From Shigella phage Sf24: DNA of 64,000 nt. Location of the stretch: sequence record MF327008. The stretch is one strand, 5' to 3'. The notes beneath the pieces were generated by a model, which ran no database searches, was not told the DNA's origin, and was given only the letters and a program-made list of their open reading frames with translations. This document shows positions 3,289 to 20,417 of this stretch, piece by piece; the stretch's first letter is position 1, and each line of letters starts with the position of its first letter. Made by a program: the position numbers and the translations under genes.

Positions 3289-3503
3289 TAATAAATTTCC
3301 TTCCAGTAAGTTGTACCGTCTTCAGTGATTTCACGGAATACACCATAAATCGGTTGTTTATCACCAACCTTTTCATACACATAAACCGAAGTCAAGTGAG
3401 TAAACTTAACGGTATGTTCCTTTTGAACTACTACCAAATCTGGATCGAATAATACATCTTCAAATTCGTCATTAGTGCAGTTCTGAACAATTTTACGTTT
3501 CAT
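3288..3503 (-). CDS. cef: Cef-like protein (71 aa)
   Basis: 71 aa, position after goF as in T4. Confidence 0.6.
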
Positions 3504-3516
3504 TACAATTTCCTCA

Positions 3517-3786
3517 TTAATTGAACAGTGGAGCGATGCGTTTCAGAAGAGTAGCAGCACCTTTGGCAAATTTTACATCATGAAAAACAGTTTCTTCTTC
3601 CGTTACAACACGAGCTTTAATGTTTTCACAATCCCAATTTTTGCGAACAATCTTCAAAAGCTGCAGTAAATCTTTACATTCAGCAATATCGATAACACAT
3701 CCACGAGGATCTTCCATTATCGCACGATAACCGTAAGCCATACCATAATCATTGAAAGATTGCTCGATGATAATTAAATTTTCCAT
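3517..3786 (-). CDS. hypothetical protein
   Basis: start at internal Met MENLIIIEQ preceded by GGAGAA; track N-terminal extension reads through leader. Confidence 0.55.
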   Translation of the reverse strand: MENLIIIEQSFNDYGMAYGYRAIMEDPRGCVIDIAECKDLLQLLKIVRKNWDCENIKARVVTEEETVFHDVKFAKGAATLLKRIAPLFN

Positions 3787-4872: not shown

Positions 4873-5366
4873 TAATTAAGGATATTAATTACTGCACTAC
4901 GTGGAACTACACTAAAATCACCTGCATGAACAACGTTCAGAAGTTCAACACCGTCTTCAATCCACTGATCAGTTACCCATCCACTCACTGGACCTGCGAA
5001 CGGACGTCGAATTGAAACAGCTTTACACAACAAATCAGTAGGCTCAATAGGCTTAACCAGAGTACCGTACATACAAGCGATATCCATATCAATACAGATG
5101 TCTTTAACGGGTTCTACTTCTTCAATCAACAGTTCAAAGTCGGTGCTTGGAAGGGCGGTAGTAGAAATTGTACCGTATGAATTTTTAATTTCTAAGAATA
5201 ACCAAGGGCCTTCAGCTTGTTTGATGAAGTTAACAATAGTGAAACTATTACCTTGAGTGGCGCCTAAAATTTCACAAAACTTTTCATAAGCTCGCACTGA
5301 AGCACCATACCAGTTGATTTGCTTTTCGTCTTTCAGGATGTAAGTAGCTGTAGTACTGATATTCAT
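4872..5366 (-). CDS. hypothetical protein, paralog family member (164 aa)
   Basis: shared motif QWIEDGVELLNVVHAGDF. Confidence 0.6.
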   Translation of the reverse strand: MNISTTATYILKDEKQINWYGASVRAYEKFCEILGATQGNSFTIVNFIKQAEGPWLFLEIKNSYGTISTTALPSTDFELLIEEVEPVKDICIDMDIACMYGTLVKPIEPTDLLCKAVSIRRPFAGPVSGWVTDQWIEDGVELLNVVHAGDFSVVPRSAVINILN

Positions 5367-5378
5367 GATGTTTTCCCC

Positions 5379-5882
5379 TTAATCTAAGGTAATAAAGCCT
5401 TTTAATTCGGCATGTGACTTGCGGAACATTACTTGATGACCGCCAATGATAACTTGGTCATCAGGTACTTCGTATACAGCGAGATAAAATCCTTTAGAAG
5501 CTAATTCTTCACGCTCTTCTCGTGTGAACCATCTCATCATATCATATTCGCTAGCGAAAGCAAAATGATAAAGAGCTATAAACCATCCTGGAATATAGTG
5601 ATCTACGCCTACATATTCTTCTTTCTCAAAATTAGTATTAATTGCTATATTAGCATTTTTAACTAATAATTTGTCTTCATGCGGCACAGGAATTCTTTTA
5701 TTATCATTACTATGATGCATAAAATTGGGTCTGTCATAACCTACGCGTAATAACCACTCTTCACTCCATGAATCTATTATACTCCTGTACGGAGTTATTT
5801 GAACACAAAGATCTCGACGTATTGTTATAGCATCTTCATAATTAAGAATACTAAACGATGATTCAACACGATAAATTTTCAT
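5379..5882 (-). CDS. hypothetical protein
   Basis: internal Met MKIYRV preceded by GAGGA; early promoter upstream. Confidence 0.55.
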   Translation of the reverse strand: MKIYRVESSFSILNYEDAITIRRDLCVQITPYRSIIDSWSEEWLLRVGYDRPNFMHHSNDNKRIPVPHEDKLLVKNANIAINTNFEKEEYVGVDHYIPGWFIALYHFAFASEYDMMRWFTREEREELASKGFYLAVYEVPDDQVIIGGHQVMFRKSHAELKGFITLD

Positions 5883-14682: not shown

Positions 14683-16022
<1,340 letters not shown>

Positions 16023-16045
16023 TATATCATCCTCAGCAATTTGTT

Positions 16046-16079
16046 TTATAATACCATAACAAGCTGAGAAAGTAAACAA
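16046..16079 (-). promoter_or_regulatory. T4-type early promoter driving nuclease-like ORF, dam and 56
   Basis: GTTTAC ... TGGTATTATAA on minus strand. Confidence 0.55.
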
Positions 16080-16115
16080 ATTTATGATAAATATTAATTT
16101 AAAGGAGGACGACGC

Positions 16116-16316
16116 ATGGTACAAAAATTAATGGCAATTGTTAATGCCATCAAAGGTAATAAAAAACGTATAGCTTTTACTATTTCTGCTATGGTAGGAA
16201 TTTTACTCTGGAACTTTATTTTATCACCTGTTGCAATTGCACATGGTATTAATATTCCAGTAGTTACTCTTGATACATTCGTAGATTTAGCATTTGCTTT
16301 AGTTGGGTTAATTTAA
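16116..16316 (+). CDS. small hydrophobic membrane protein, plus-strand gene
   Basis: AAGGAGG 7 nt before ATG; occupies the only non-coding gap between gene 61 and the nuclease-like ORF; ATAAATA late-promoter-like box ~25 nt upstream. Confidence 0.55.
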   Translation: MVQKLMAIVNAIKGNKKRIAFTISAMVGILLWNFILSPVAIAHGINIPVVTLDTFVDLAFALVGLI

Positions 16317-17341
16317 ATCTTAGCATATTTAGATAACCTCATTTTAGCCATCAACCCCTGGGCAATATTATTTTTCATATATTCCATAATTTGTTCAGGG
16401 GTTGCACCTTCCTTTCTAATCATATCATTAACATCTTTTGATTTCCAGGGAGATTTATCCCAAAACATAACTCTTTCTCCTGCATCAACTAATTTAGTCA
16501 TTCGTTTGATAGTGTCAGGGTGACGAGGTTCATTATCTAAAACCCACACTCGTCTATCTTTAAATGGAACAACTTCTAGGTCTAATTGACCACCCGTAAT
16601 AGCTATACCATTTTCAATAAAAAGTGAATCTATAGGTCCTTCTAGAACATATACATCACCATCTTTAACTCGTTCAACACCGTAAATTTTTGTTGCCTCA
16701 GGATAAGCTTTGATGGTGATATACTTTTGTGGAGCATCTTTCTTTAATGCACGTCCTTGAAAAGACTCAGCTTTTCCGTTAGCATTATAAATTGGAATAA
16801 CAAGACGAGGCTCAGAAATTTCCTTTTTGTATGTTCCCGGTGCTATGCTATTAACTAATTTAGGCCATTCGGTTGTAAACCAAAGATATTTCCATTTATC
16901 CTTTGGAATACAACGAGCTTTTACATATTTTATAATTGGATGGTCTTCCGCCAGTTTATCTAATCTAACGCATGACGGAAGAGATTTAATTATTTTCTTC
17001 TCAGGCTGTTTAGGAAGTTCTTTAGGTTTTTCTACTGGACGACTTTTACCTTTTTCTTTTCTTATTTCAAAGATATACTCACGATATAAATCAGGTTCAA
17101 ACTCCTTTAAATATATTCCGATTGGTGCATGATAGTTACAGTTATAACAATGAATATTTCCTTCATTATTATCACCATAATACCATCCACGGGCTTTATT
17201 TTGGTCGGTTTTTGAATCTCCACAAACAGGGCATCTAAACCGCAACTTAAAGGTTGAACTATTATTTACTTGTGTAAATTTAGGTAAATGAGCTAATGCA
17301 CGGTATGCAAACTCATTATCAATCCAAGGTATTGATGACAT
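16313..17341 (-). CDS. 61: DNA primase gp61
   Basis: 342 aa; zinc-binding CPVCGDSK; T4 gp61-like. Confidence 0.9.
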   Translation of the reverse strand: MSSIPWIDNEFAYRALAHLPKFTQVNNSSTFKLRFRCPVCGDSKTDQNKARGWYYGDNNEGNIHCYNCNYHAPIGIYLKEFEPDLYREYIFEIRKEKGKSRPVEKPKELPKQPEKKIIKSLPSCVRLDKLAEDHPIIKYVKARCIPKDKWKYLWFTTEWPKLVNSIAPGTYKKEISEPRLVIPIYNANGKAESFQGRALKKDAPQKYITIKAYPEATKIYGVERVKDGDVYVLEGPIDSLFIENGIAITGGQLDLEVVPFKDRRVWVLDNEPRHPDTIKRMTKLVDAGERVMFWDKSPWKSKDVNDMIRKEGATPEQIMEYMKNNIAQGLMAKMRLSKYAKI

Positions 17342-17343
17342 TT

Positions 17344-17508
17344 TTACTCTTCTTTTTCTTTAGATTCCTCTTTCTTCTTTTTAGGAATCTGTTCAGGACC
17401 TTTATTTACTACAGCACCTGACGTTGTTCCAGTAGAGATATTTTCAGGATTACCACCTGAATCTCCAGCGACCATATCTTCTTTAATAAATTCTTTATAT
17501 GTTTTCAT
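17344..17508 (-). CDS. mini-ORF with capsid-targeting-sequence-like N-terminus MKTYKEFIKE (61.1-position)
   Basis: AGAGG RBS; N-terminus resembles the internal-protein CTS; length 38-54 aa depending on an A-run I could not read unambiguously. Confidence 0.35.
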   Translation of the reverse strand: MKTYKEFIKEDMVAGDSGGNPENISTGTTSGAVVNKGPEQIPKKKKEESKEKEE

Positions 17509-17509
17509 A

Positions 17510-18136
17510 TTAACCTCTATTCATAAAAGCATTAAAAATTTGGTCATCAATAGAAACATTTACTTTAGACTGTTTTTCTGATGGTAATTCATATCCACAT
17601 ATCACAATTTTATGATCAATATCAAAATACACAGAAGCAATATGATTAATGATATTTTCAGTGAAGTCTAAATCGACATCAATATCTTTTTGACCAAAGC
17701 CCAAAGGATAAATAATGCGAGTAATTCGATTATCTTTAACAAAGATTCCACCGACATACTCTGTACTGCGTTTAAAGTCTACACGCCGACGAAATGAAAA
17801 ATATTCAGGCTCTTTATGAGCTCGGCTCATAGGACACAACGAATAACTAGAATAAGAGATGTCAAATCCTACGCCTTCAATATGAGCCAAAGTGTCATGA
17901 TTAAACCAATTATAATCGTACGCCAAATCCATTAGATTATAATATGTAAAAGGCACCGGATTAACATCATTAGTCACAAGCATGTAATTAGCAACTGCTA
18001 TAATTTCATTGTTTTTAACGAATACAAACCGTGATTGATGCGAATGACCTGGACCCGCGTTTTCACGATTAATGATATAACACTGGGCACCTTTATATTT
18101 GTATGTATCTTTGCACTTGTGCATTTGATAGAGCAT
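17510..18136 (-). CDS. hypothetical protein at the 61.2 position (possible AdfA-like anti-DarT factor)
   Basis: 208-aa ORF between 61 and sp; assignment by synteny only. Confidence 0.5.
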   Translation of the reverse strand: MLYQMHKCKDTYKYKGAQCYIINRENAGPGHSHQSRFVFVKNNEIIAVANYMLVTNDVNPVPFTYYNLMDLAYDYNWFNHDTLAHIEGVGFDISYSSYSLCPMSRAHKEPEYFSFRRRVDFKRSTEYVGGIFVKDNRITRIIYPLGFGQKDIDVDLDFTENIINHIASVYFDIDHKIVICGYELPSEKQSKVNVSIDDQIFNAFMNRG

Positions 18137-18429
18137 TATTCACCTACCACTTCAGCGATGATATTTTTGTTATTAAAGTTTTTATCGCAATACAGAACAT
18201 AATTATACTGCATTACACCACCAGACTTAAGCTGTTTTTGCACTTCAGCTTTCATTTCAGGACGATCGCGCTCAACAATATTCATAATATCCGCTTCAAT
18301 TTGAGTTTCAACCTCAGTCTGATCAGCAGTCATAGACCATTCGCACAAATCTTTATCATAACCTGCCATAGCAGGCTGAGCAGCACAAGAAGCTAAAGCA
18401 AAAATTGTAGCAAAGATAAATTTTTTCAT
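18136..18429 (-). CDS. sp: Spackle periplasmic protein
   Basis: 97 aa with signal peptide MKKFIFATIFALASCAAQPAMA; T4 sp-like. Confidence 0.85.
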   Translation of the reverse strand: MKKFIFATIFALASCAAQPAMAGYDKDLCEWSMTADQTEVETQIEADIMNIVERDRPEMKAEVQKQLKSGGVMQYNYVLYCDKNFNNKNIIAEVVGE

Positions 18430-18452
18430 GATAATCTCCTCAGTAGTTTATG

Positions 18453-18488
18453 TTTATATAGTATCTCAATTTCCAACAAAAGTAAACA
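18453..18488 (-). promoter_or_regulatory. T4-type early promoter upstream of sp
   Basis: GTTTAC and TACTATA -10 on minus strand. Confidence 0.45.
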
Positions 18489-18489
18489 G

Positions 18490-18747
18490 TTATTTTAAAA
18501 CTTCTGTGTAATCACATGTTACAAACTGTTTCTCTAGCTTGACGATTTTACGAAAGTATCTTTTACATTGACGAATCTGTCGCTTAGTAGGGCGCACAGC
18601 AAACTTAATAAATTCCACTCGACCAAATGGAGGGCTTTCTTCTGATGGAATATCTAACACCAATTCCCACGTATCTGCAATAAGTGCTTTGAATTGAGTA
18701 TTTTTCCTAACGTTATACGGAGTAGGTTTAAATAAAACAATATGCAT
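18490..18747 (-). CDS. 61.4-position protein (possible TifA-like)
   Basis: start at internal Met MHIVLF with GAGGA RBS, just after dmd stop. Confidence 0.5.
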   Translation of the reverse strand: MHIVLFKPTPYNVRKNTQFKALIADTWELVLDIPSEESPPFGRVEFIKFAVRPTKRQIRQCKRYFRKIVKLEKQFVTCDYTEVLK

Positions 18748-18748
18748 A

Positions 18749-18931
18749 TTATCCTCGGCAATCCACTTCACATACTTTCTTGTCATCAATGAAAGCTTTA
18801 ACTAATGCTTTATTAACTTCAGCATACTGAGTAGTAGCCCATTGAACGTCATCTTTCATCATTGTGGTTTCTTTAGTAAACATGCTTTCATTCTTAAACC
18901 ACCCCATAAAAACTACCTTTACCAATTCCAT
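18749..18931 (-). CDS. dmd: Dmd antitoxin (discriminator of mRNA degradation)
   Basis: 60 aa MELVKVVFMGWFKNESMFTKE... near-identical to T4 Dmd as recalled. Confidence 0.9.
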   Translation of the reverse strand: MELVKVVFMGWFKNESMFTKETTMMKDDVQWATTQYAEVNKALVKAFIDDKKVCEVDCRG

Positions 18932-18957
18932 AACAATCTCCTCATTTAACCAACAAG

Positions 18958-18990
18958 ATTACTATACCATAGTCTTGTCAGCTTGTAAAC
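18958..18990 (-). promoter_or_regulatory. T4-type early promoter upstream of dmd
   Basis: GTTTAC ... TGGTATAGT on minus strand, overlapping end of gene 41. Confidence 0.5.
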
Positions 18991-20417
18991 TAAAATTTTA
19001 ATTCATTTGCCAAAGCATCTAACTGAGCTCGAGTAGATTCATTTCTTTGATAGCGATTCTGCTCAGCCTGAATCTGTTGTGAACCTGCTACTTCGTTCAC
19101 TTCAGTTGGAGTAGAATCTTGTTCAATTTCTACCCATTTCTGATTTCCTTTTTGAACACCCATCAAAAACTTATTCCATTTATTCTTATCGCCATATCGT
19201 GATTTGATTTGCTTAATGAGTTGTTGTTCAGCAGCTGCTAGCTCCTCGGTTTCAATGACCGCAAGCATAAAATCAGCTGTTGCTGGAAGACCAGCAGATT
19301 CTGCAATATCGCTCATGTTAACATCGGAAGAGTCCCAAGCTTGTTTACCAACCTGCGCTGCGGTCCAAAGAACAGTTTCGGTTTCAACAGCAAGAGCACG
19401 CAATTCCTCTGCAATAGCTTTAACAGTTGTGTAACTATTTTCTGAATAAACTCTAATGCGGCAAGATTTACAAATACCTAGATAGTCGACAATAATGATT
19501 GTTGGAACAAAATTCTTCTTGAGCTTCAATTCATTCAAGAGAGACCTGAATGTATTAGCGTCTGCTCCACCAGTAGGATATTGCTTAACGATTAAACGAC
19601 CGAGAGTAGATTTCTCACGCCATTTTTCCATTTTTCCTTTATATTCGGCGTAAGAAATATGTCCATCATCAATATCGTCAAGAGAAACATCGAGCATGTT
19701 AGCATCAATACGTTTAGCACAGACTTCTTCTGCCATTTCCATGGAGATATAAAGAACGTTATGACCAAGCTGCAAATAATCTGCTGCTAATGAGCAAAGT
19801 CCTAATGATTTACCAACGTTAACGCCAGCCATTAAAACGTTCAGTGTTCCTGTTTCAGCTCCGCCTTTTGTAATTTTATTCAAAATACGAAGTTTAAATG
19901 GAACCTTACGAGCTTTATTCATATAAGATAGCCAGCGTGCTTCGTAGTCATCCATCCAATCATGACCAACGTAGCTATCAAATGAAATTGATAATGCTTG
20001 GCGCATGATGTCAGGAATAGCACCTACATCTGGCATTTTCTTATTTCGTTTTTCCGGAGGAAGCTCAGCATTAGTTTGAATTTCGATTATTTTAGACGTA
20101 GCATTAAACATCGCCCTTTGCTGAACATATTTTTCTGTTTCTTTTACTAACCAACTATGGTCTTCCGGAGAATCAGCTAGTTTTGAAATAAGTGTTTTTA
20201 CACCAGAATATTCTGTTTCAGTAAATGAACTATTTTCTAATGCAACATTTAACGCATTAATAGATGGAACGCTATGATACTCATTAACATGAGATTTAAT
20301 TAATTTGAATGTATTTTTAGCTGGACCACTTTCAAAATATTCTGAATCCATATATGGCCAAACTTTTGAAAAATAAGCTTGATCAAATATGAGATGAGAA
20401 AGAATAATTTCTACCAC
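18990..20417 (-). CDS. 41: replicative DNA helicase gp41
   Basis: 475 aa; Walker A GVNVGKS; DnaB-like. Confidence 0.92.
   Translation of the reverse strand: MVEIILSHLIFDQAYFSKVWPYMDSEYFESGPAKNTFKLIKSHVNEYHSVPSINALNVALENSSFTETEYSGVKTLISKLADSPEDHSWLVKETEKYVQQRAMFNATSKIIEIQTNAELPPEKRNKKMPDVGAIPDIMRQALSISFDSYVGHDWMDDYEARWLSYMNKARKVPFKLRILNKITKGGAETGTLNVLMAGVNVGKSLGLCSLAADYLQLGHNVLYISMEMAEEVCAKRIDANMLDVSLDDIDDGHISYAEYKGKMEKWREKSTLGRLIVKQYPTGGADANTFRSLLNELKLKKNFVPTIIIVDYLGICKSCRIRVYSENSYTTVKAIAEELRALAVETETVLWTAAQVGKQAWDSSDVNMSDIAESAGLPATADFMLAVIETEELAAAEQQLIKQIKSRYGDKNKWNKFLMGVQKGNQKWVEIEQDSTPTEVNEVAGSQQIQAEQNRYQRNESTRAQLDALANELKF

Follow-up and report, generated by a model that had tools for sequence, protein, structure and literature searches.

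The genes lying between the helicase gene 41 and the primase gene 61 of phage T4 were called the 'anti-TA island' by Srikant, Guegler and Laub (eLife 2022; PMC9391042). The product of one of them, Dmd, directly inhibits the RNase toxins RnlA and LsoA and is the classical RnlA inhibitor (PMC9391042). Gene 61.4 was renamed tifA in the same study, and its T4 product neutralises ToxN as a protein. Native tifA expression in T4 overcomes chromosomal toxIN, knockouts plating ~100-fold worse, and the phage gets past plasmid-borne toxIN only once dmd-tifA has undergone segmental amplification (PMC9391042). Expression of the dmd-61.4 locus starts from an early T4 promoter that precedes dmd, and a promoter downstream of tifA is also mentioned (PMC9391042). 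TifA binds RNA via a basic C-terminal helix, and neither the P53A/T54A nor the K55A/R56A/R59A variant still binds RNA or inhibits ToxN (Guegler et al., PMC10853763). Residue 41 tunes TifA potency, with Phe (T4) weak and Ser or His strong; when overexpressed, the TifA proteins of T2, T4 and T6 (>96% identical) neutralise E. coli ToxN and three close homologues (PMC10853763). T4 gene 61.2 is adfA (PMC9391042, PMC11257639). T4 lacking adfA has no phenotype on DarTG1, even without AdfN (gp30.3), the main anti-DarTG1 enzyme, and the authors proposed that T4 AdfA is adapted to another DarT homologue; T4 AdfA supplied in trans nevertheless suffices to restore growth of phage RB69 on DarTG1 (PMC11257639). 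Residue 164 of RB69 AdfA is a specificity determinant: with Arg there is no DarT1 binding, and with His there is strong two-hybrid binding and neutralisation (PMC11257639). The remaining named gene, sp, encodes Spackle, a periplasmic inhibitor of the gp5 tail lysozyme that gives superinfection exclusion (PMC7677548).

The window analysed here is a 64,000-nt stretch of Shigella phage Sf24 (MF327008), a Tequatrovirus genome. Its positions 17510-18931 on the minus strand almost certainly constitute a T4-type 'anti-TA island' of the kind already published. According to the ORF list, the ends of this interval coincide exactly with the 61.2 stop codon and the dmd start codon. The preliminary description had placed four small genes together here between genes 61 and 41, and the ORF list, the family matches and the T4 gene order all agree with that placement (Table 1). 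The order of transcription is 41, dmd, 61.4, sp, 61.2, 61.1, 61, the same as in the T4 reference annotation, and order and spacing of the block match both the T4 reference genome and the Sf25 annotation. Shigella phage Sf25 is the nearest relative of the region 17300-19000 (99.9% identity), which is also 95-99% identical to ~390 other records, hundreds of Tequatrovirus genomes among them. Altogether 538 phage records matched the region, and in 328 the match extended over 80% or more of its length.

Table 1. Features of the Sf24 locus and its flanks, in order of transcription of the block, with codon differences from T4.
Feature	Coordinates	Strand	Length	Synonymous codons vs T4	Non-synonymous codons vs T4	Remarks
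gene 41 (helicase)	18990-20417	minus		52	0	upstream flank of dmd
dmd (61.5)	18749-18931	minus	60 aa	1	1	
tifA (61.4)	18490-18747	minus	85 aa from ATG	8	3	
tifA-sp spacer	18430-18489	minus	60 nt			
sp (61.3, spackle)	18136-18429	minus	97 aa	5	1	
adfA (61.2)	17510-18136	minus	208 aa	20	5	
61.1	17344-17508	minus	54 aa	4	2	last before primase gene 61, just outside 17510-18931
gene 61 (primase)	16313-17341	minus				downstream flank
66-aa ORF	16116-16316	plus	66 aa			phrog_2024; Sf25 counterpart annotated predicted membrane protein
186-aa ORF	15462-16022	minus	186 aa			phrog_8706

We asked whether the four ORFs are genuine genes. Each of dmd, tifA, sp and adfA matched a family (Pfam, PHROG) with E values from 2.4e-20 to 5e-137, and the scores against the Pfam models for AdfA, T4_Spackle, DUF7279 and Dmd far exceeded the curated cut-offs; none of Dmd, TifA, Sp, AdfA and 61.1 is represented by a model in NCBIfam. 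Stop and start codons abut or overlap in an operon-like manner (TAATG, TAATATG): the tifA ATG lies 1 nt past the dmd stop (junction GGATAATATG), the adfA start overlaps the sp stop in a TAATG (junction GAATAATG), and the adfA/61.1 junction reads GGTTAATATG. On the strength of the family matches, the wide conservation among phages, the bias towards synonymous changes relative to T4, the operon-like packing and a promoter-like site upstream of dmd, we therefore judge the four ORFs to be real genes and not chance ORFs. The ORF list also allows 61.4 to be extended to an upstream TTG, which would give 99 aa. Plus-strand antisense ORFs (e.g. 18103-18396, 97 aa) were dismissed, as they lie fully within well-supported minus-strand genes and had no independent support.

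The promoter-like site upstream of dmd (18989-18961, minus strand; TTTACA, 17 nt, TG-TATAGT) lies directly past the gene 41 stop. It is the best promoter match of the region, of the early sigma-70 type, with 10 of 12 positions matching and an extended -10 TG, and in the 58-nt spacer around it 2 bases are changed relative to T4, each on the downstream side of the -10 hexamer. The site likely drives a dmd-tifA operon, an assignment based on position and literature and not on statistics, because the total of promoter-like hits in the region was not above the shuffled expectation (8 vs 8.7). The arrangement, with tifA immediately downstream of dmd and the promoter-like site upstream of dmd, is the one described in PMC9391042. 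In the spacer between tifA and sp, 100% identical to T4, lie GAGGAG, the ribosome-binding site of sp, and a promoter-like element, GTTTAC...TACTAT, where the promoter scan returned a 9/12 site (18456-18428); we infer a putative promoter here. No terminator was detected when the block was scanned, a result that fits read-through into gene 61, and a search of 17200-19100 against Rfam (E up to 1) revealed no structured RNA.

The 208-aa ORF had been proposed to be AdfA-like by synteny. It matched Pfam PF23813, 'Anti-DarT factor A', over residues 1-208 against profile positions 1-211 (E 5e-137; 454.5 bits, cut-off 27), and 203 of its 208 residues are identical to T4 gp61.2 (97.6%), so that homology now identifies it as AdfA. 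The five substitutions relative to T4 are L62P, D66Y, N82T, V84A and P190S. The first four restore the residue carried by most family members, T4 being the outlier at those positions. These four substitutions form a cluster in residues 62-84, and two of the four positions fall in residues 77-94, the stretch of lowest AlphaFold confidence (pLDDT <50). In the alignment, His165 of Sf24 AdfA corresponds to Arg164 of RB69. Among 16 AdfA cluster representatives drawn from a search of 5.8 billion proteins, this column is His in 14, Asn in one and Arg (the RB69 type) in one. The family is narrow, every homologue found being at least 69% identical. A PDB sequence search with AdfA at E up to 1 gave no match, and AlphaFold2, run on a shallow alignment of 16 sequences, gave a moderate model (pLDDT 69, pTM 0.55). 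For these reasons a fold or mechanism assignment for AdfA was dropped, in agreement with the published statement that the protein has no homology to known families.

Likewise, the 85-aa ORF had been proposed to be TifA-like from its position at 61.4, and sequence comparison now confirms the assignment. The product shares 82 of 85 residues with T4 gp61.4 (96.5%; changes A35S, A81T and I83V) and matched Pfam PF23945, DUF7279 (E 2.4e-20; 72.6 bits, cut-off 24.5), and phrog_2375 (E 5e-38); we identify it by these matches as TifA. The RNA-binding residues P53, T54, K55, R56 and R59 are all present and are invariant among Sf24, T4 and RB69. Position 41 is Phe, the weaker T4-type allele, and not the Ser or His of the high-potency forms; this residue concerns TifA potency and not family membership. 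A35S falls where the predicted ToxN-facing loop begins. No match was found in a PDB sequence search with TifA. Sf24 TifA would thus be expected, from its allele state, to be functional but of low potency, like that of T4. The preliminary description had asked for a homology comparison of the 208-aa and 85-aa products with AdfA and TifA, on which its interpretation was made to depend; homology was found for both.

For sp and dmd, which had been recognised from their sequences from the start, the identities held. Sp matched Pfam PF25676, T4_Spackle (E 1.3e-44), carries an N-terminal signal peptide, is identical to its T4 counterpart in 96 of 97 residues (99%; change K53E), and matched the crystal structures PDB 6x6o, 6xc0 and 6xc1 (E 8e-62; 6x6o over residues 1-97). 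Dmd matched Pfam PF17587 over its full length (E 1.8e-45), is identical to T4 Dmd in 59 of 60 residues (98%; change I22T), and matched chain B of the solved complex structure PDB 5hy3, 'Antitoxin Dmd' (5hy3_B; E 9.6e-37). The description of the block as a counter-defence island of four genes holds for dmd, tifA and adfA, which are anti-defence genes, but not for sp, a superinfection exclusion gene (PMC7677548). Spackle, whose listed functions also include resistance to lysis from without, is an exclusion factor against other phages and not a counter-defence against host immunity.

The block had also been put forward as a place to look for further inhibitors, an idea found in Srikant et al. 2022 as well. 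No ORF without an assignment is left within 17510-18931, and the only unassigned gene of the block, 61.1, lies just outside it. The 61.1 product matched phrog_1823 (E 7e-34) and no Pfam or NCBIfam model, and a literature search for a gp61.1 function found nothing. It also matched only the C-terminal positions 109-154 of the 156 positions of a longer family, phrog_2086. In RB69, two neighbouring ORFs, ORF032c (positions 1-52) and gp61.1 (positions 64-155), share phrog_2086 between them; they lie at 3318-3784 of the piece of NC_004928 compared. From these partial matches 61.1 of T4-type phages looks like a truncated remnant of a longer (~156 aa) gene family; its sequence is Gly/Ser/Lys/Glu-rich and largely of low complexity, and it is probably disordered.

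Many Tequatrovirus genomes carry in the island an extra 118-aa ORF (phrog_4122), found by tblastn in 333 phage records. In Escherichia phage FriedrichZschokke/Bas41 (MZ501067) it lies on the minus strand between 61.1 and adfA, at 511-867 of the piece compared; it is absent from Sf24, where the corresponding position is ~17509. The ORF matched the Pfam AdfA model (E 8.8e-8, profile positions 113-211), shows 34% identity over AdfA residues 109-208, and its C-terminal SIDDQIFNAFMNRG is identical to that of AdfA. By this alignment the ORF corresponds, as a stand-alone paralogue, to the C-terminal half of AdfA, the half that bears the His165 specificity residue. The literature consulted assigns it no function, and it is a candidate for a further anti-toxin factor. 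Beyond primase, Sf24 and Sf25 carry two genes between dam and gene 61 (15462-16316), where T4 has an empty gap of ~300 bp. The minus-strand one gave a weak, sub-threshold match to the DpnII restriction-endonuclease-like family PF04556 (E 0.0099; 15.7 bits, cut-off 23). RB69 likewise has a plus-strand ORF of similar size to the other, at the same position relative to gene 61.

Compared with the T4 island (PMC9391042), gene content, order, strand, lengths, spacing and the flanking genes 41 and 61 are the same, and the proteins are 96.3-99% identical. The differences from T4 consist of 5 substitutions in AdfA, 3 in TifA, 2 in 61.1 and 1 each in Dmd and Sp, and Sf24 belongs to a different Tequatrovirus species, with Sf25 nearest to it. 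The Mosigvirus RB69 also has dmd, tifA, sp, adfA and 61.1 in the same order between 41 and 61, but additionally holds imm, imm.1 and ORFs 032c, 033c, 040c and 041c. Its AdfA (71% identity to that of Sf24) is of the Arg164 type, which fails to bind DarT1 (PMC11257639), and its TifA (56% identity) is shorter, carries His41 and is more potent (PMC10853763). RB69 imm and imm.1 lie inside the island, between sp and tifA (5012-5690 of the NC_004928 piece compared), whereas T4 imm is ~6 kb away, beyond gene 42; the slot therefore gathers both exclusion and anti-toxin genes in some lineages.

In a wider comparison the block resembles anti-CRISPR and anti-restriction islands, which are clusters of small, early, non-essential inhibitors of different host immune systems with varying cargo, and the same analogy to anti-defence islands was drawn in PMC9391042. 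It fits that pattern in that dmd, tifA and adfA lie within 1.4 kb and relatives add further cargo, the 118-aa AdfA paralogue in some and six other ORFs in RB69. It departs from it in that the targets are TA toxins and not CRISPR or restriction-modification systems, no aca-type regulator gene is present here, and the exclusion gene sp is interleaved.

The gene identities would stay the same if AdfA and TifA were adapted to homologues of DarT and ToxN different from the E. coli proteins tested in the laboratory, a refinement that does not exclude the main explanation and that we hold to be possible but doubtful. Phenotypes on the model DarT1 and ToxN systems would then be weak or absent. Such retuning is favoured by the silent adfA deletion of T4 and the other DarT homologue proposed for it (PMC11257639), by the variation in potency and specificity among TifA homologues, which may suit the cognate ToxN (PMC9391042, PMC10853763), and by the Sf24 substitutions themselves (5 AdfA and 3 TifA positions), yet T4 AdfA did rescue RB69 on DarTG1 in trans (PMC11257639). 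The broad activity of overexpressed T2, T4 and T6 TifA also argues against it, as do the tested specificity residues, AdfA His165 and TifA Phe41, which are T4-like in Sf24. Variable regions between core genes are known in T4-like genomes, and this counts for a different reading, one that we consider unlikely: that the block is no functional island but a hyperplastic slot between two essential replication genes, in which anti-toxin genes would sit together without mechanistic or regulatory meaning. The mixing of the exclusion gene sp with anti-TA genes would fit such a slot, as would the presence of imm, imm.1 and four further unassigned ORFs in that of RB69 and the insertion of the 118-aa ORF in many Tequatrovirus genomes. 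That ORF, however, is itself an AdfA paralogue and therefore points to functional clustering. Moreover, three of five small genes in 1.6 kb each inhibit a different TA toxin, which is more than random T4 early genes would give, and dmd and tifA share an operon and undergo joint amplification under selection (PMC9391042). We retain the reading of the block as a functional anti-TA island.

The remaining alternative concerns the 85-aa ORF alone, which might act as RNA, either as a toxI-like pseudo-antitoxin or as a decoy substrate of ToxN, and not as a protein. Other phages do escape ToxIN with toxI-like RNAs, and a putative site of ToxN cleavage lies towards the 3' end of the T4 tifA mRNA (PMC9391042). 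For T4 this reading has already been refuted: deletion of the tifA start codon abolishes activity, a recoded tifA with 55 of 258 nt changed still works, and removal of the ToxN site has no effect (PMC9391042). In Sf24, the region gave no Rfam match and the tifA changes relative to T4 are mostly synonymous (8 vs 3), and we find an RNA function scarcely credible. As for novelty within the island reading, it is very unlikely that 61.1 is a fifth inhibitor of a host toxin or defence, or that Sf24 AdfA neutralises a DarT homologue that T4 AdfA does not.

Taking the functional island as the preferred reading, the locus would work as follows; the gene identities, allele states, operon-like packing and promoter-like site were observed here, and all steps of binding and inhibition are taken from the T4 and RB69 literature. 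An early promoter immediately downstream of gene 41 would drive transcription of a compact block of early, non-essential genes, whose small proteins would act within minutes of DNA injection. Dmd would bind and block the RNase toxins RnlA and LsoA. TifA would bind RNA via its basic C-terminal helix and, together with RNA, trap the ToxN endoribonuclease in an inactive ribonucleoprotein enriched in 16S rRNA. AdfA would bind the DNA ADP-ribosyltransferase toxin DarT1, and Spackle, exported to the periplasm, would inhibit the gp5 lysozyme of later-arriving T-even phages.

From its alleles, Sf24 should behave like T4, with Dmd giving resistance to RnlAB and LsoAB. It should overcome low-level (chromosomal) ToxIN but not plasmid-borne ToxIN, and its AdfA should be able to bind DarT1, redundantly with AdfN/gp30.3, which is encoded outside the window. 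Homology does not guarantee a phenotype: the T4 adfA deletion is silent on DarTG1, and T4 TifA is weak on plasmid toxIN. Because deletion of adfA in T4 has no phenotype, plaque assays on DarTG1 hosts could be negative without contradicting the adfA assignment.

The interpretation offered in the preliminary description is correct but reproduces a published idea. As a discovery the locus is of little value, the island, its genes and their mechanisms having been published for T4 and RB69 and the Sf24 alleles being near-identical. Annotation is where it is of practical use: sequence is enough to name the adfA and tifA orthologues with confidence, yet nearly all deposited relatives, Sf25 included, still list them as 'hypothetical protein'. 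Furthermore, His165 of AdfA predicts the ability to bind DarT1, and Phe41 of TifA predicts a phage that overcomes only low-level ToxIN. Allele states of AdfA and TifA read in this way allow host-range predictions for phage-therapy candidates.
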